Below, in pieces: positions 1 through 37,775 of a DNA stretch of 38,703 bases. The notes below the pieces were generated by a model. That model saw only the letters and a list, made by a program, of their open reading frames with translations. It was not told where the DNA came from and searched no databases. How positions within the stretch are numbered: the stretch's first letter is position 1; each line of letters begins with the position of its first letter. The position numbers and the translations under genes were made by a program. Origin of the DNA: a virus (lineage: Duplodnaviria; Heunggongvirae; Uroviricota; Caudoviricetes); IMG/VR virus record IMGVR_UViG_2724679538_000007, positions 1 to 38,703 of that record, one strand, 5' to 3'.

Positions 1-1071
1 TTATTTGATTTCAATTTTGTCCCACTCCCTGCCTCTGTCATCACGATACTGTGATGCCATGGTGTCCGACTTATGCCCGAGAAGATGTTGAGCAAATTTA
101 TCGCTTATCTGCTTCTCATAGAGTCTTGCAGACAAACTGCGCAACTCGTGAAAGGTAGGCGGATCCCCTTCGAAGGAAAGACCTGATGCTTTTCGTGCGC
201 GCATAAAATACCTTGATACTGTGCCGGATGAAAGCGGTTCACGACGAGTAGATGCAATTATGGTTTCTCCGCCAAGAATCTCTTTGCATTTATCAAGTGT
301 TTCCTTCATTGATATCCCGAGGGCATCAACATGCAATGCTGTTGGGATGGCAATTTTTACGCCTGTTTTGCTTTGCTCGACATAAAGATATCCATCTACG
401 ATATCAGACCACTTCATTTCGCATAAATCACCAACTCGCTGCCCGGTAACAACAGCCAGTTCCATTGCAAGTCTGAGCCAACATGGTGATGATTCTGCTG
501 CTTGATAAATTTTCAGGTATTCGTCAGCCGTAAGTCTTGATCTCCTTACCTCTGATTTTGCTGCGCGAGTGGCAGCGACCGGGTTTGTTGTTATATGGCC
601 TTCAGCTATTGCCTCTCGGAATGCATCGCTCAGTGTTGATCTGATTAACTTGGCTGACGCCGCCTTGCCCTCGTCTATGTATCCATTGAGCATTGCCGCA
701 ATTTCTTTTGTGGTGATGTTTTCAAGTGGAGCATCAGGCAGACCCCTCCTTATTGCTTTAATTTTGCTCATGTAATTTATGAGTGTCTTCTGCTTGATTC
801 CTCTGCTGGCGAGGATTTTTTCGTAGCGATCAAGCCATGAATGTAACGTAACAGAATTATCACTGTTGATTCTTGCTGTCAGAGGCTTGTGTTTGTGTCC
901 TGAAAATAACTCAATGTTGGCCTGTATAGCTTCAGTGATTGCTATCCTCCTGTCTCGGCCTAATCCAAACTCTTTACCCGTCCTTGGGTCCCTGTAGCAG
1001 TAATATCCATTGTTTCTTATATAAAGGTTAGGGGGTAAATCCCGGCGCTCATGACTTCGCCTTCTTCCCAT
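1..1071 (-). CDS. int: Tyrosine integrase, lambda Int type (356 aa)
   Basis: Translation matches phage lambda Int over its full length as I recall it (MGRRRSHERRDLPPNLYIRNNGYYCYRDPRTGKEFGLG ... HELRSLSARLYEKQ ... GHKSDTMASQYRDD). Confidence 0.97.
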   Translation of the reverse strand: MGRRRSHERRDLPPNLYIRNNGYYCYRDPRTGKEFGLGRDRRIAITEAIQANIELFSGHKHKPLTARINSDNSVTLHSWLDRYEKILASRGIKQKTLINYMSKIKAIRRGLPDAPLENITTKEIAAMLNGYIDEGKAASAKLIRSTLSDAFREAIAEGHITTNPVAATRAAKSEVRRSRLTADEYLKIYQAAESSPCWLRLAMELAVVTGQRVGDLCEMKWSDIVDGYLYVEQSKTGVKIAIPTALHVDALGISMKETLDKCKEILGGETIIASTRREPLSSGTVSRYFMRARKASGLSFEGDPPTFHELRSLSARLYEKQISDKFAQHLLGHKSDTMASQYRDDRGREWDKIEIK

Positions 1072-23633: not shown

Positions 23634-23876
23634 ATGACACACATGATCTTTCGTCATGGCGACATGAAGAAGTGGAAAGGCGTTGGCTACGACTTTGAAA
23701 TCGTGAAAGCCGAAGAGCTTCAGGAATATCTGGATGCTGGCTGGTTTTCACATCCTGATGACCTTTTGAAGGATGTTGCAGAGCCAGAGCCAGAGCCAGA
23801 GCCAGAAGAAAAACAGCGTAAAAAGCCTGGTCGAAAACCTAAGGCGGCAGCAGATGAACCTGACAACGAAGGGTGA
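23634..23876 (+). CDS. Hypothetical protein (80 aa) with an EPEPEPEPE acidic repeat and a basic C-terminus
   Basis: ATG with GGAG RBS after the coat terminator; (GAGCCA)x4 coding repeat at 23781-23804; its stop overlaps the gp4 start. Confidence 0.5.
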
Positions 23877-24354: not shown

Positions 24355-24450
24355 TGCCGATTCAGCAACTTCCGCTTATGAAAGGTGTCGGCAAAGACTT
24401 TAGAAACGCTGACTATATCGACTATCTGCCAGTGAATATGCTGGCAATTT
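24355..24450 (+). pseudogene. Remnant 5' fragment of gene 10 (31 gp10-like codons, then a premature stop)
   Basis: [31 protein letters not shown] matches the P22 gp10 N-terminus and starts directly after the gp4 stop; reading frame ends with ...ILI-stop; the intact gene 10 resumes about 670 bp downstream. Confidence 0.65.
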
Positions 24451-24494
24451 TGATATAATAAGTACATGAAAAATCGAAACTTTAAGGAGTAGAT

Positions 24495-25079
24495 ATGCTT
24501 TCTGAGAATGCTAAAGATATACCTGGATTTGAAGGTGTTTATGCCGTAACAGAAGATGGCAGGGTGTATTCTCACTCACGTGTTGTTAAGGCTGCGCATG
24601 GCAGCACGCAACTCAGAAAGGGGCGCTGGTTAAAGCCTAAAATAAATCAGGGAAGGGTGCTTTATAATATCGGAGCAAAATGGACTTTTGCCCATCGAAT
24701 CGTTGCAATGACATTCCTGCCAAATCCTGAAAACAAGCCTCAGGTAAATCATATTGATGGCAATCCACTCAATAATAACGTCAATAATCTTGAGTGGTGC
24801 ACTCAAAGCGAAAACATCAAACATGCATACGCCACAGGATTAAAGAAACCAATCAAGTTTTTCGGAACCAAGCACCCAAAACACAAGTTGAGTGATGACG
24901 ATGTTCTTGCAATCAAGTCATCAAAAGAAAGCTTGTCAGTAATTGCGGCTAAGTACGGGATATCTAAGACTTGGGCAAGTAGGCTAAAGCGTGATGCTAA
25001 CTGGGTTCATATAAAGGTTGATTCCAATGGCAATACAACAACTACCACTAATGAAGGGATTAGGGAAAAGTGCGGTTAA
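24495..25079 (+). CDS. HNH homing endonuclease (NUMOD4-like N-terminus, HNH core, C-terminal DNA-binding motif; 194 aa)
   Basis: GFEGVYAVTEDGRVYS (NUMOD4-like) and HRIVAMTFLPNPENKPQVNHIDGNPLNNNVNNLEWCTQSENIKHA (HNH); AAGGAG RBS; local AT-rich composition; splits gene 10. Confidence 0.85.
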   Translation: MLSENAKDIPGFEGVYAVTEDGRVYSHSRVVKAAHGSTQLRKGRWLKPKINQGRVLYNIGAKWTFAHRIVAMTFLPNPENKPQVNHIDGNPLNNNVNNLEWCTQSENIKHAYATGLKKPIKFFGTKHPKHKLSDDDVLAIKSSKESLSVIAAKYGISKTWASRLKRDANWVHIKVDSNGNTTTTTNEGIREKCG

Positions 25080-26445
25080 TGCTGATTATATAGACCAACT
25101 TCCAGTCAATCTTTTAGCTACGCCCAAGGAGGTGTTGAATTCATCGGGATATCTTCGCTCATTCCCGGGCATTGCCAAACGCTCTGATGTAAACGGCGTA
25201 TCTCGCGGCGTCGAGTACAACATGGCGCAGAATGCTGTTTATCGTGTGTGTGGTGGCAAGCTGTACAAAGGAGAAAGTGAAGTCGGTGACGTTGCCGGAA
25301 GTGGTCGCGTATCAATGGCACATGGTCGTATATCACAGGCGGTAGGGGTTAACGGGAAACTGGTCGAGTATCGCTATGATGGCACGATTAAAACCGTCTC
25401 AAACTGGCCTACAGACAGCGGATTCACGCAGTATGAGTTAGGCTCAGTCCGCGACATTACGCGCTTACGTGGGCGTTATGCGTGGTCAAAAGACGGCACT
25501 GATTCATGGTTTATCACTGATCTTGAAGACGAATCGCATCCTGACCGTTACAGCGCACAATATCGTGCCGAGTCTCAGCCGGACGGCATCATCGGTATCG
25601 GGACATGGCGAGACTTCATCGTCTGCTTTGGTTCATCGACTATTGAATATTTCTCCCTGACTGGCGCAACCACCGTTGGTGCTGCTTTGTATGTCGCACA
25701 GCCATCACTGATGGTGCAAAAAGGCATTGCCGGGACTTACTGCAAAACGCCATTCGCTGATTCTTATGCGTTCATCAGCAATCCTGCAACAGGTGCTCCG
25801 TCTGTATACATCATCGGCTCCGGTCAGGTATCACCAATCGCCAGCGCGAGCATTGAGAAAATACTACGCTCCTACACTGCTGATGAACTGGCTGATGGCG
25901 TGATGGAATCGTTGCGGTTTGATGCTCATGAGTTGCTGATTATTCACCTGCCGCGCCATGTTCTCGTGTACGACGCATCTTCAAGCGCCAATGGTCCGCA
26001 ATGGTGTGTGTTGAAAACTGGCTTGTATGACGATGTGTACCGCGCTATCGACTTCATTTACGAAGGCAATCAGATAACGTGCGGCGATAAGCTGGAGTCC
26101 ATGACCGGGAAATTGCAGTTCGACATCAGCAGCCAGTATGGGCTACAGCAAGAACACCTGCTGTTTACTCCACTCTTCAAAGCAGATAACGCCAGAGTTT
26201 TCGACCTTGAAGTTGAATCTTCAACTGGCGTAGCTCAGTACGCCGACCGCCTGTTCCTCTCTGCAACCACTGACGGCATAAATTATGGGCGTGAGCAGAT
26301 GATTGAGCAGAATGAACCGTTCGTTTACGACAAACGCGTTTTGTGGAAACGAGTAGGGCGCATCAGGAAAAACATTGGTTTCAAATTGCGCGTTATCACG
26401 AAGTCACCTGTCACTCTGTCTGGCTGCCAGATAAGGATTGAGTAA
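25027..26445 (+). CDS. Tail accessory/head completion protein, P22 gp10-like (about 473 aa; track ORF begins at a TTG at 25018)
   Basis: [49 protein letters not shown] ... parallels P22 gp10 through to the C-terminus; start overlaps the 3' end of the HNH gene. Confidence 0.9.
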
Positions 26446-27293
26446 TGGCGGATTCGAATCTCAATGTGCCGGTAATCATTCAGGCTACACGGCTAGACAC
26501 ATCAGTCCTTCCACGCAATATCTTCTCGCAGTCGTATCTGCTTTACGTTATCGCACAGGGCACTGATGTTGGTAACGTGGCTAACAAAGCCAACGAGGCC
26601 GGACAGGGCGCTTATGACGCACAAGTCAGGAACGATGAGCAGGATGTGATTCTGGTCGATCACGAAATTCGACTGGCATCGGCTGAATCGAAGATACAGG
26701 ACCACGAAACAAGGATCACTAACGCAGAAGCGGCGATAGTCGGCCTTGATTCTCGATTAACGACAGCAGAAAACGATATTGATTATCTGACGAATGAAGT
26801 TATCGCCATTCAAAACACGCTTTCAGACCATGAAACTCGCATTGATGCTCTGGAGTATGCAACCACGCGCAAGAAGTCAGAGGTTGTTTACTCTGGCATA
26901 TCAGTAACCATTCCGACAGCGCCGACCAACCTTGTTAGCCTGCTGAAAACGCTCACGCCGTCATCCGGCACGTTAGCACCATTCTTCGACACCGTTAACA
27001 ACAAGATGGTTGTGTTCAACGAGAACAAAACCTTGTTCTTCAAGCTGTCGATCGTCGGGACGTGGCCCAGCGGAACCGCCAACAGGTCAATGCAGCTAAC
27101 CTTTTCCGGCTCTGTTCCTGACACACTGGTAAGCAGTCGCAACTCGGCGACAACAACCGATAACATCTTGTTAGCTACGTTCTTCAGCGTGGATAAAGAC
27201 GGCTTTCTTGCCACAAATGGCAGTACGTTAACCATTCAGTCGAATGGTGCGGCGTTTACCGCCACAACCATCAAAATCATTGCGGAGCAGTGA
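26445..27293 (+). CDS. Tail needle protein (gp26 family) with an extended C-terminal knob-like domain (282 aa)
   Basis: N-terminus [43 protein letters not shown] matches the P22 gp26 N-terminal domain; about 50 aa longer than P22 gp26, with a different C-terminus, as in Sf6-type needles. Confidence 0.85.
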
Positions 27294-27760
27294 TGGAAAT
27301 AAAGCTCATCGATAATCCGGTGAAGCTTGCAGAATTCCTCAACAACCCGGCAAACACGGGGAATATCGTAGACAGTGGAGATAAATACTACATCAAGCCT
27401 GATGCGGTATATCTCGGCATCTACGAAGGATTAGTGCTGGCTGGAGTTCATGAAGTGCGTAACTTCTGGCATAGCGTTGTTGAATGCCATGCGGTGTATG
27501 ACCCCGGATTCCGTGGTGAATATGCACTGCAAGGGCATCGATTATTCTGCAAATGGCTTCTCGAAAACTCACCATTCCTTAACAGCATCACCATGGTTCC
27601 TGACACAACGAAATACGGACGGTCAATTATCCGTTTGCTTGGCGCTACCCGTGTTGGTCACCTTGATGATGCGTACATGAGTAACGGAAAACCGGTTGGA
27701 ATCACCCTCTATCAATTACCTCGTTCGAAATATGAGGAGCTATTAAATGTTAGTACTTAG
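27290..27760 (+). CDS. Virion assembly/ejection-associated protein in the P22 gene 14 position (156 aa)
   Basis: Synteny only (between the needle gene and the first ejection protein); similarity to P22 gp14 not verified. Confidence 0.6.
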
Positions 27761-31767: not shown

Positions 31768-32253
31768 CTACCTGATATTACTGCTACTGTTGCATGTTAC
31801 CGTGTTTCCAAATCCTGAATTGCAGTTTGTATATGTGTCAACGCGTGTTGGGTAAGGTTGAGTTATAACAGGCTGGCGCGCTTTTTGCTCGATCGCTTGC
31901 ATTGTGTTTACAGCCTGATAATTCAATAAAGCCTGCTGGAATGCTTGGCTTTGTGCTATTTGTTGGGCTTGTTCTTGGCTTTGTAATTGAACATAAAGAT
32001 TCTGAAGCTCAAGTCTTGCCTGTGCGTCACTTATCTTGCCTTCATCGACACCTTGCCCGAGCATCTTTGCAGCAAGGACATACAGCTTAGGTGTTGGTGC
32101 TGATGCCATGCGTGAGTCGTTCTTCACACTGGCATCAAGGCAATTAGCCATATCGCTAAGCTTTTGATAGCGTTGTTCGCAACTTGCTTGATAGTCACTT
32201 ACTTTTGCGCATCCAACCAGAAGAAGCGGGATAATTAACAGTGATTTTTTCAT
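31768..32253 (-). CDS. Lipoprotein (161 aa), antisense to the late operon; candidate superinfection-exclusion factor
   Basis: Signal peptide plus lipobox MKKSLLIIPLLLVGC; AAGGAG RBS; occupies the P22 sieA/immI position between gene 16 and the tailspike. Confidence 0.7.
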   Translation of the reverse strand: MKKSLLIIPLLLVGCAKVSDYQASCEQRYQKLSDMANCLDASVKNDSRMASAPTPKLYVLAAKMLGQGVDEGKISDAQARLELQNLYVQLQSQEQAQQIAQSQAFQQALLNYQAVNTMQAIEQKARQPVITQPYPTRVDTYTNCNSGFGNTVTCNSSSNIR

Positions 32254-32287
32254 ATAATTAACTCTCCTTAGTTTTTAGCAGGATACC

Positions 32288-32653
32288 ATGAAAAAAGTTA
32301 ACATTGGAAACGTACCAAAGATGCTCGTTCCGCTCTTTGAGAGCGGTACAATTGTGTTTTGTAGAGACTTTCCAGAATGGCAACGCCTGCATCAAAAACT
32401 TGGTGTGGACGTGCATGACTCGGACGCCAACGGAGCGTCTCATACAATGAGTAGCGAGAATGGTGTTTTGCATGTGATAGGCGTGTTCAATGGCAAACTA
32501 TCTACCATTGCCCATGAGTGCGCTCACATGGCATTCGATATCTGCTCAAGGGTAGGTGTTGATGTTGAACCAGGAAGAGCCAACGAGACTTACTGCTACT
32601 TAATGAGCAGGCTTGTTGAGTTCTGCGAGCGACATATCAAAAAGCCGGAGTGA
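32288..32653 (+). CDS. Small HExxH-motif protein (121 aa), possible zinc metallopeptidase-like regulator
   Basis: Motif IAHECAHMAFD (HExxH); ATG with AGGA RBS; diverges from the lipoprotein gene with only 34 bp between start codons. Confidence 0.5.
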   Translation: MKKVNIGNVPKMLVPLFESGTIVFCRDFPEWQRLHQKLGVDVHDSDANGASHTMSSENGVLHVIGVFNGKLSTIAHECAHMAFDICSRVGVDVEPGRANETYCYLMSRLVEFCERHIKKPE

Positions 32654-33089: not shown

Positions 33090-34991
33090 ATGACAGATTC
33101 AATAAATGCCAATGTTGTAGTGAGTATGCCTTCGCAACTCTTCACTATGGCTCGTTCTTTTAAAGCCGTAGCCAATGGCAAAATTTATATCGGGAAAATT
33201 GACACTGATCCGGTAAATCCTGAAAACCGGATTCAGGTTTATGTAGAGAACGAAGACGGCTCTCACGTTCCTGTTTCTCAACCAATCATCATTAACGCTG
33301 CTGGTTATCCGGTATATAACGGACAGATTGCTAAATTCGTAACTGTGCAAGGCCATTCCATGGCTGTTTATGATGCGTATGGTGCACAGCAATTCTATTT
33401 TCCTAATGTGCTGAAGTATGACCCTGACCAGTTCAAACCTGAACTACAAGGTGCCAATGGAGCAAGCTTAATTGGTACTAATCATCGCGGCACCTTAAAG
33501 GCTGACTTAGATCGCATTGACAATAGAACGTCGGGACAGTCCATCGCAGATTTAAAGTCTAATACTGGTGATATTGTTATCGACTCCTCTGTTACGGACG
33601 CAATCACCCCAATTTCAGGCAGCGAGATATCTGGGGCGAGTAACGGGGAACATGTCACCGCTAAGGGTACTGTCGGGATTACTATAAATGATAGCAGGGT
33701 TAAGGTTGATAACTTGCTAATGCGCGGCGACGGCACTGTAGACTACACGGACACCTCACCGACATATAATGCCATTATCTATGGCTCGGACGTTGTTGTG
33801 TCCCGTTCATACGCTAAAGACACGACAATGGGGTACGACTTGGCCGCCGGTGCTTCCAACGTTAAGCTAATTGGTAATACAAGTGAAAATATGACGTCGC
33901 ACCCCGCCGTTGGTACACCACCTGTTTCAGCCGGTGGCTATGGTGTGCTTCTGGGAACTAACGAGGACGTATTAATCCTGGGCCATTCTGCTAAGGGCAC
34001 AAACCCTGCTGACCGCCACGCAGTATACCTATCAAATACGAACAACACTGACCAGAACAAAGATGTTCGGGTAATCGGCTTACGTGCGGATTACAGCGCA
34101 GGTCCATCCGCGGGGGATAAGCCGGAGCGGTCATCACCTATGATATTCGCCCGCGGCAACAACGGCGTCATTATCAGTTCTTCCCAACTCCGTGGCGGCG
34201 GAGCCGGTATAAATTTCACAGATGAGCGCGTAGGATACAGTTCAATAACCTTGAGTGATTTGCAATTACTGGATATTCGTAAGAATACCGCGGATGAGTC
34301 ATGGGGTATCGCACTCAACCACGCGTCTGCTAACGCTTCCAATGTCAACACCCAGAATATTATTAACGGCGTTAATATAGTAATGGCGCCCGGGAGCACA
34401 TCTGCCGACAGGTCGAATCAGTACCCTATACACCTTAATTCACAGCGGTATGTAAATATTGATAATGCCATCATAGCATCGTCGGGGTTGGCGTACGGAA
34501 TACGCCTGATAGCTACAAGTTACTGTAATATCAGTAATGTAGTAGGGTTTACTAACGATGGGACATCTGCCGCGGCGGCCGTGGCGTTCTTCCAGTTTCA
34601 GAACGGAAGCAGTAATATTAAATTAAGCAATATAAACGTCCAATCAAGAAATACAATGTTCGCAGGGCTGGATAATGTAACCGACTTGCAAGTGGATTGG
34701 GTGCGTAAAGTTCGCATTAACGTTGTATCTGGAGCGGCTACAGTATCAGGGGATATATGGGAACTAGTTAGCGGCGTAACCGTCACTGGGGCGAGTATAG
34801 CTGTTCAACTTAAGGGCCATGTAACACAAACCGCTGCTGATGGCGCTATCGTAAGGCCGGCTAGTGCTAATCAATTTATTGTTGCTGGCACTGACTCTAA
34901 AAGGATTACAATTTCTGTATATAACGTTAATGGCACTGGTGTTGTGCCAAACACTGGTACTTATTCGTTCGATATTGTGCTATATAAATAG
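33090..34991 (+). CDS. Tailspike protein (P22 gp9-like N-terminal head-binding domain, divergent receptor-binding domain; 633 aa)
   Basis: N-terminal about 120 aa parallel P22 tailspike (ANVVVS ... [22 protein letters not shown] ... [12 protein letters not shown] ... NVLKYDPDQ); the rest is unrelated by eye and Gly/Asn/Ser-rich, consistent with a beta-helix. Confidence 0.88.
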
Positions 34992-35050: not shown

Positions 35051-36499
35051 CTATCGACATTTGTTGAAGTCAAATATCATTGTGTCATTATGAATAAGTG
35101 TGGTGTAGATACTATTACTTCTGTATGGTTTTTTGCACGATGATGCCAATGCAGATGGTAAGTTTATCTTAGAATCATAATCTACTTTTATTCCCATGCT
35201 GTTAAAAATAAATGCCCCAAACATCCAGTCTGATCTGATATATGATGGAGTAATCATGCCAATGATTCCGATTTTTTCATTAGCGTTTTGTACTGGTTGA
35301 GGAAATGAAGTTAACCCATTAAATCTTATTTTAGTTATATTTTGGCTTGATGTTATGTCCTTAGCCATAGAATAAAATAAAAATTCCTCTTTGCTCTTCT
35401 GTGCTTGTAAGGAATTCCCATACATGTAACTAACAATAAAGCACGAGAAAATTAAAGGGATAGGTGTGAAAAACGTCCATCTATTGGCGCTTGAAGATAT
35501 AATATAAACTGAAAAAAACATGAGACCAGAAAATCCTACTAATACCCTGGGATATACAACAGGTTCATCTAGAATAAAAAGAACGCCAATAACAGATAAT
35601 AATACGCCAAATATGCATATTAATGTAGCTATTGTCGTGTTAATTGTTTTTCTTTGAAATGCATTTGTGAATGACATTGCTATTGCTATTGATAATGTTA
35701 TAGCAAATATACCCCCCAGAAATCCCGAAAGAGCCTTTAATATCATACTTGTGTAAATTTTGTAATTTTCTGATACATTAAATGCAAGACCTTTTACATT
35801 TAATGCTAATTGAGCATGGTTTGTGCTATATGCGCCAGAAACATAAATGCTAGCAATTAGTAGTTTATAAATAATAAGTGCGGCAGTTAATGCCAGTATA
35901 TATACTGAAATATTCTTAAGAAGTGTTGTTATATTATCTGTTGATTTTAAAATAATACAATTCAAACAAGTGAGAGCAATAAATATGTTTACTGATGATT
36001 GATACAGGCTTAAAGTAAAAACCAACAGAATGATCGATGTCGCGAAATTTATAAAACTTTTGTTTTTTAAAAGAAGTGCGGCGGACACAACAGATAATGA
36101 CACAGAGAGTGACATTGTAAATACGTCAAATTTGTAAGACAAATTTTGAAGATAAAAAGGTGATACAATCAAAGATAGTGAAATTAATACTACCCTAAAT
36201 TTTCCTTCGAGTTTGGTTATGAAACAATAATAATAACAAGAGGTTATCATTGTTAACATTGATAGCAAAAGAGGCATTGGTGATATGTTGATAACCTTAC
36301 CACCAAATGACATACCTTTAATTATCCATTCTGCAAGCGGTCTACCATTGTCTGCCCATCTTGCATATCCAGCAATATTTCTTGATATGTCGTCAATGTA
36401 GAAAACATTGCCAATAATCAATGGTAATGAGTATAGAATAGCAAGTGTAATGGCATAGGTATATCCATTACGTTTTAAATACATTATAAATGAGTTCAT
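35051..36499 (-). CDS. Serotype-specific O-antigen glucosyltransferase, GtrC-type polytopic membrane protein (482 aa)
   Basis: Third gene of a gtrA-gtrB-X operon; many predicted TM helices; strongly AT-rich relative to the rest of the prophage; GtrC-type proteins are typically this divergent. Confidence 0.7.
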
Positions 36500-37416
36500 T
36501 GTGTTTTACCTTTTATTATATAACGAGGTCTCATCTTTGTTTCTGTGTAAATTCTTCCAATGTATTCACCTAGCACACCAATACCTATCAATTGGACGCC
36601 GCCAAGGAACAGAATAGACACGAGCAATGAAGGATAACCACGAACAGGGTTTCCAAACACCAGTGTGTCAAGAATCATCAACGCACCGTAAATAAATGCC
36701 ATACTGGCAACAAAAAGCCCGATATAAGTCCACATGCGTAGTGGGAATGTTGAGAAACTTGTTATTCCCTCAAGGGCTAAATTCCACAACTTCCATCCGT
36801 TAAATTTCGTGCTCCCTGCTACACGTTCGGCGCGAACATATTCTACAACATCAGTCTTTCCGCCAACCCAACTCAGTATACCCTTCATGAATAGGTTGCG
36901 TTCTTGCATGAGCTTAATATTTTCTACAACTTCACGGCTCATTAACCGGAAATCACCAACATTTTCCTCAATCTTTGGATTACTTATTTTGTTGTGTAGC
37001 TTATAGAACCACTCAGCAGTTTTGCGCTTCAGACGACCATCAGTAGATCGATCTGATCGTTTGGCAAGAACCATATCAGCGCCTGCCTGCCACTTTTCTA
37101 TAAGATGAGGAATAACCTCAATCGGGTCTTGCAGGTCAACATCAATTGGAATCACGGCATCGCCAGTTGCATGGTCTAACCCTGCAAACAATGCTGGTTC
37201 TTTACCAAAGTTGCGTGTAAATGACAGCGGAACAACTAGCGGATCAGAAACAGCCAGAGCGTTAATGATTGACTCCGTAGCGTCTTTGCTTCCGTCATTT
37301 ATGAAAACAATTTCTACTTCATATGACTTCAACTCTTCGAATTCACGTACCGTTTTATAGAAAATTGGTATCGCTTCTTCTTCATTGAAGACAGGAACGA
37401 CCAGAGATATCTTCAT
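36496..37416 (-). CDS. gtrB: Bactoprenol glucosyltransferase GtrB (GT2 family, 306 aa)
   Basis: [19 protein letters not shown] ... INDGSKD ... two C-terminal TM helices; typical GtrB organisation. Confidence 0.92.
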
Positions 37417-37775
37417 TTCGCATCCCTAAAGACAATGAACTTTGAATAGACGAAACCGCACACCAGGCTGATGGCGGAGAAAGTGATAAGGGTGACCATC
37501 GGGGGAAGTGCGCATCTATCAGCAGCCCACCCGACGACAACACTCAAGGTTCCCATGAATCCCACGTATAACAAGTAACGCATCGTTGTAGTCGATGCTT
37601 TGAATGTGAATCTTGCATTCGCGAAGAAGCTAAAGCTCACAGCTACTATGAAACCTGCGAAGTTTGCCATAGCTTGATTTGTATGCGCTGCATAGATACA
37701 TACACCAAAAACCACCCAGTGTATAAGTGTGTTCAGCACACCAATTGAGGTGTACTTTGCAAATAGCTTTAACAT
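37413..37775 (-). CDS. gtrA: GtrA-type flippase (small four-TM protein, 120 aa)
   Basis: Size, hydrophobicity and position as the first gene of the gtr operon, overlapping the gtrB start. Confidence 0.88.

Follow-up and report, generated by a model that had tools for sequence, protein, structure and literature searches.

The ORF at 26445..27293 (plus strand) of the window, by which we mean the whole 38,703-nucleotide stretch of viral DNA analyzed here, is a tail needle gene, the orthologue of Sf6 gene 9 and P22 gene 26. Its product is almost certainly a needle of the already characterized Sf6/HS1 "knob" type, from a temperate P22-like (Lederbergvirus-type) phage or prophage of E. coli. By its sequence, the needle is built of three modules: an N-terminal domain, a coiled-coil shaft and a C-terminal knob of the PF16532 family. 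The ORF is intact, with an ATG start, 282 codons and a TGA stop. Its start codon overlaps the stop codon of the preceding gene, gp10 (TAATG), and its stop codon overlaps the ATG of the downstream gene (TGATG). Overlaps of this kind couple neighbouring genes tightly, as is typical of the virion operons of phages.

We searched the predicted protein for matches to the PHROGs and Pfam collections and to the sequence databases. The full length of the needle (residues 1-282) matched PHROG 1030 (phrog_1030), "tail needle knob", with E = 2e-133. The only significant Pfam family was PF16532 Phage_tail_NK, described as "Sf6-type phage tail needle knob", which covers residues 109-282 with a score of 364 bits (E = 1.1e-109), the cut-off being 27. 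Weak Pfam matches to coiled-coil families, including ATG16, tropomyosin, XhlA and SlyX, fell below the curated cut-offs and were dismissed as generic heptad composition. Over all 282 amino acids the protein is 100% identical to WP_046082881.1, a "tail needle knob protein" encoded by the E. coli PapM-32-1 prophage and others. No aspect of the needle is new: even an identical protein under the right name is already in the databases. The find therefore carries little weight beyond correct annotation, for which "tail needle protein, Sf6-type knob" would be a fitting label.

Close relatives of the needle are common. The identical protein, WP_046082881.1, occurs on 20 contigs, and the 120 homologues listed are all at least 98% identical to the needle. 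At the DNA level the gene has matches in 914 of 5426 complete E. coli genomes, in 316 of which a match covers at least 80% of the gene. Another 16 matches are to phage records, among them Sf6, N7, Louie, Kapi1 and Gally. The knob domain also has homologues in myoviruses, both Vi01-like and T4-like, and in phages of Aeromonas and Edwardsiella, a wider spread that was noted before by Leavitt et al. (PMC3741392).

The N-terminal domain (residues 1-60; 26445..26624, plus strand) would serve in virion binding and as the plug of the tail-hub (gp10) channel, a role taken from published work (PMC3741392, PMC9728967). It is identical to Sf6 gp9 at all 60 positions and to P22 gp26 at 49 of the 60, and it matches PDB 8eap_B, a 62-residue N-terminal fragment of gp26, with E = 1.7e-27. 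The preliminary description of this sequence had called the first 60 residues gp26-like, which is correct, and the similarity in fact reaches further. In PDB searches it continues past residue 60 and through the coiled coil to approximately residues 137-153, with residues 1-153 matching the P22 and HK620 needles (2POH, 3C9I, 4LIN, 5BU5).

The shaft (residues 61-140; 26625..26864, plus strand) is predicted to be an alpha-helical trimeric coiled coil of 11 heptads, on the basis of its heptad register and its alignment to the gp26 helical core. The 11 heptads run unbroken from residue 63 to residue 139 in a single register, with I, L or V at 10 of 10 consecutive "a" positions between residues 70 and 133, and the register of Sf6 is identical. 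The published number of heptads for the Sf6 and P22 needles is also 11 (PMC3741392). An AlphaFold2 single-sequence model shows one helix over residues 74-139, with pLDDT values of 84-92 at residues 81-130.

Within the shaft, a segment comprising residues 71-126 (26655..26822, plus strand) diverges from its counterpart in Sf6 gp9, itself a protein of 282 amino acids. Identity to Sf6 gp9 is 70/70 in residues 1-70, 18/56 (32%) in residues 71-126 and 154/156 in residues 127-282. The DNA follows the same course: identity to Sf6 is 48-77% across nucleotides 181-420 of the needle gene and 92-100% in the flanks of the gene, except for a final 9-nucleotide fragment (8/9), and the megablast match of the gene to Sf6 falls into two pieces. 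By these alignments, the needle is a mosaic of Sf6-like ends and a different shaft allele. This allele is present in E. coli prophages as well, with 318 records that match the needle gene in one place over at least 80% of its length. It fits the recombinational mosaicism typical of the P22-like phage group. Because the swapped shaft keeps both the number of heptads and their register, the length of the needle is unchanged with respect to Sf6. A published case of Sf6-like ends with a divergent shaft is the HS1 needle (PMC3741392). The needle described here has just one feature of its own, the mosaic shaft, and this repeats the HS1 pattern; it adds one example to the known P22-like arrangement of conserved ends and an exchangeable shaft.

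The C-terminal knob (residues 141-282; 26865..27290, plus strand) is assigned as a TNF-like jelly-roll trimer from PF16532 and from the crystal structures 3RWN, of the Sf6 gp9 knob, and 4K6B, of the HS1 knob. The former is reportedly that of Bhardwaj and colleagues, from 2011. In PDB searches, residues 131-282 of the needle matched 3RWN with E = 2e-90 and 4K6B with E = 6e-90, each at 149 of 152 positions. One of the three differences is at position 131, which is T in the needle and in native Sf6 gp9, and S in both PDB chains; since native Sf6 gp9 has T131, the S in the Sf6 crystal construct is non-native. Over the knob itself the needle is identical to Sf6 gp9 at 140 of 142 residues and to HS1 at 141 of 142. 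The likeness to an Sf6-like distal knob that had been suggested from the sequence is therefore more than a resemblance. The description of a 282-amino acid protein with a Thr/Ser/Asn-rich C-terminus was likewise accurate, residues 141-282 being 16% Thr, 12% Ser and 7% Asn.

In the AlphaFold2 single-sequence model of the full protein (mean pLDDT 54.6) the shaft helix alone is confident; strands are predicted in the knob, mostly with pLDDT below 50, which speaks neither for nor against its fold. We infer a globular, TNF-like fold from the 98-99% identity of the knob to two crystal structures, a basis that is firmer than prediction. The same two crystals answer the question, raised in the preliminary description, of whether the C-terminal domain is globular. 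In the published structures, three L-glutamates lie where the subunits of the knob meet, and its tip carries a phosphate (PMC3741392, PMC9728967). The L-glutamate contacts listed for the knob (PMC3741392), namely E146, K200, S248, D250, L255 and K277, are all present in the needle at the same positions as in Sf6, and the phosphate triad of the same list, S231-R232-N233, is present too.

The order of genes around the needle is gp4 (PF11650), an HNH insert, gp10, needle, DUF2824, gp7, gp20 and an ORF of 615 amino acids. The virion gene order round the needle, which stands directly after gp10, agrees with the annotation of Sf6 and with that of an annotated E. coli prophage; a P22-type portal and a P22-type coat are also encoded in the window. 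Gene gp10, encoding the tail hub whose channel is plugged by the needle, occupies 25027..26445 (plus strand; PF11134 Phage_stabilise, E = 1e-295). Its ORF opens at a TTG at 25018, and alignment to Sf6 gene 8 indicates the ATG at 25027 as the likely start. Downstream of the needle is a DUF2824 protein gene (27293..27760, plus strand; PF11039), in the position of P22 gp14, and after it come the ejection-protein genes gp7 (PF25688), gp20 (PF16928) and gp16, which extend up to 31753. The 615-amino acid ORF in the gp16 position had no match in Pfam; it is assigned through its annotated counterparts: in Sf6 this is gene 13, described as similar to P22 gene 16, and in PapM-32-1 it is a protein with a lytic transglycosylase domain.

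The 5' end of gene 10 (region 24355-25079) contains an inserted HNH/NUMOD4 endonuclease ORF of 194 amino acids (24495-25079). Positions 24355-24445 are about 98% identical to gene 10 of HK620, IME10 and JEP4 over roughly its first 28 codons, and they match the start of Sf6 gene 8 as well; the gene 10 fragment that begins here then meets stop codons. Full gene 10 restarts at the ATG at 25027, where these codons are repeated in a diverged, recoded form that overlaps the end of the HNH ORF. The insert has the look of a free-standing homing-endonuclease cassette, one that carries an altered target site along with it, and a cassette 96.7% identical to it is found in Salmonella phage UPF_BP1. In gp4, the tail accessory factor gene, the longest ORF starts 27 codons upstream of the part matched by Pfam, and these codons encode a QSQSQSQSQ dipeptide repeat (23773-23853). 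The true start of gp4 is probably an internal ATG (M28, at about 23854), and the short tandem repeat would therefore sit in the intergenic region between coat and gp4.

Positions 31768-32653, after the last ejection-protein gene and before the tailspike, hold two divergent ORFs of 161 amino acids (minus strand) and 121 amino acids (plus strand), neither of which had a Pfam match at E <= 1e-4. In P22-like phages the immI/ant-type region lies at this place. The tailspike gene (33090-34991, plus strand) encodes a P22 head-binding domain and a receptor-binding body that had no Pfam match. It is followed by an O-antigen glucosylation operon on the minus strand, consisting of a GtrII-type gene (35051-36499), gtrB (36496-37416) and gtrA (37413-37775). 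A lambda-type integrase is encoded at 1-1071 (minus strand), and the window looks like a complete serotype-converting temperate phage. Over positions 18000-38703, the half of the window with the late genes, the best coverage by a phage record in megablast searches was at most 52%, the top match being Escherichia phage Louie at 95.7% identity. As a whole, the genome combines known P22-like modules into a new mosaic.

Published work on Sf6, HS1 and P22, taken together with the near-identity of the sequences, suggests how the needle may act. It would form a homotrimer, whose N-terminal tip would enter and plug the channel of the gp10 tail hub after DNA packaging, the DNA then staying in the head. 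The shaft would reach out farther than the six tailspikes, with the TNF-like jelly-roll knob as the distal tip, presumably the first part of the particle to touch the outer membrane. Once the tailspikes have digested the O-antigen and the particle has reoriented, the needle would be lost, which would leave the channel open for the ejection proteins (gp7, gp20 and gp16) and the DNA. A trimeric needle that plugs the channel and is released at infection is known for P22 and Sf6 (PMC3741392, PMC9728967, PMC9400499). By the same analogy, the knob would be no determinant of host specificity in the laboratory and would influence the rate of DNA delivery.

A C-terminus of this kind had been taken in the preliminary description to imply a different membrane-penetration or secondary-receptor interaction, and the knob might accordingly be a receptor-binding domain for a secondary (protein) receptor in the outer membrane that sets host range. 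Its TNF-like fold is like that of the knobs with which adenovirus fibre and PRD1 P5 bind their receptors, and the knob lies at the distal tip, the expected site of first membrane contact (PMC3741392, PMC9728967); as of 2013, moreover, the Sf6-type knob was present in none of the 48 known Salmonella P22-like phages (PMC3741392). However, P22 chimeras carrying the Sf6 knob and shaft, or the HS1 knob alone, gave normal yields and infected Salmonella normally. Their sole change, seen with some constructs only, was in the time course of K+ release, taken as a proxy for DNA delivery, and the authors concluded that species specificity is not conferred by the knob (PMC3741392). Mutations that expand the host range of Sf6 fall exclusively in the tailspike gene, and the OmpC-binding region was placed by the authors at the Sf6 tailspike's distal tip (PMC9400499). 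A different penetration or secondary-receptor interaction thus finds no support in published work. The tally of 2013 has also been overtaken. Salmonella Typhimurium phage S9-5 (Lederbergvirus; MW722521.1, 17866-18732) encodes a needle of 288 amino acids whose knob matches PF16532 (E = 1.8e-84). This protein, which bears no annotation beyond "hypothetical protein", is 62% identical to the window needle over its full length; phage vB_SalP_ABTNLsp11242 gives the same match. The absence of the knob from Salmonella P22-like phages therefore no longer holds as a taxonomic restriction, and we consider it unlikely that the knob sets host range through a secondary receptor. It is a doubtful conjecture, to which we give little credence, that in natural E. 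coli hosts the knob senses a specific outer-membrane component, perhaps through its buried L-glutamate sites or distal face, with shaft residues 71-126 under diversifying or recombinational selection that tunes needle release. If this were true, needle alleles would add to host range or to the evasion of exclusion in a way invisible to P22 chimeras. The present copy makes no easier test for the role of the knob and its bound glutamates, as it is near-identical to the two knobs already studied.

Two further readings concern the identity and integrity of the gene. The integrase on this element, the close copies of the gene in E. coli chromosomes and the HNH endonuclease cassette a short way upstream, inserted into the 5' end of gene 10, could point to a prophage relic in which the needle gene is a pseudogene and has lost its function as a needle. 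The ORF is, however, of full length, equal in length to Sf6 gp9, and overlaps both neighbouring genes at its start and stop codons; the ligand and core residues are all kept in a protein that recurs unchanged on 20 contigs, and the neighbouring virion genes are all intact. Decay of the gene is thus highly improbable. The alignment of residues 1-153 to P22 gp26 chains might also suggest a P22-type needle, gp26 proper, in which the C-terminus is merely a diverged P22 tip. None of the gp26 chains in the PDB aligns past residue 153, however, so that residues 154-282 are without a match among them and show no homology to gp26 residues 141-233; the C-terminus matches PF16532 (E = 1e-109) and the crystallized knobs of Sf6 and HS1. 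A P22-type tip was rejected on these grounds, its probability being negligible, and the earlier statement that the C-terminus is unrelated to that of P22 gp26 is upheld.

As a needle of the Sf6/HS1 knob type, the window protein can be compared with known systems at several removes. According to the published Sf6 and HS1 structures, the adenovirus fibre knob, the PRD1 P5 knob and the TNF family share the same class of trimeric jelly-roll fold (PMC3741392, PMC9728967); no sequence similarity was found between these knobs and the window needle. The adenovirus and PRD1 knobs are proven receptor binders, whereas receptor binding is not established for the Sf6-type knob (PMC3741392). The needles of P22 (gp26) and HK620 (2POH, 3C9I, 5BU5) have a homologous N-terminal plug domain and shaft, the same role and the same gene position. 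These P22-type needles differ in their length of 233 amino acids and in a different, non-knob tip that has no detectable similarity to residues 154-282 of the window needle.

The nearest relatives are those that carry the knob. Sf6 gp9, of a Shigella phage, shares with the window needle its length of 282 amino acids, its three-module plan, its 11-heptad register, its ligand contacts and its gene position. It differs in the shaft, where only 18 of 56 residues (71-126) are identical, and at two positions of the knob, having V in place of I152 and S in place of A270. The needle of HS1, the E. coli HS prophage (EcHS_A0316), whose knob structure 4K6B was described by Leavitt et al. in 2013 (PMC3741392), is closer in the knob, where 141 of 142 residues are identical and A270 is the HS1-type residue, and it likewise combines Sf6-like ends with a divergent shaft. 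It is, however, a longer protein of 317 amino acids and 16 heptads (PMC3741392), against 282 amino acids and 11 heptads in the window. Closest of all is the prophage gene for WP_046082881.1, whose DNA is 98.6% identical to that of the window needle, whose flanking genes are the same, and whose protein shows no difference.
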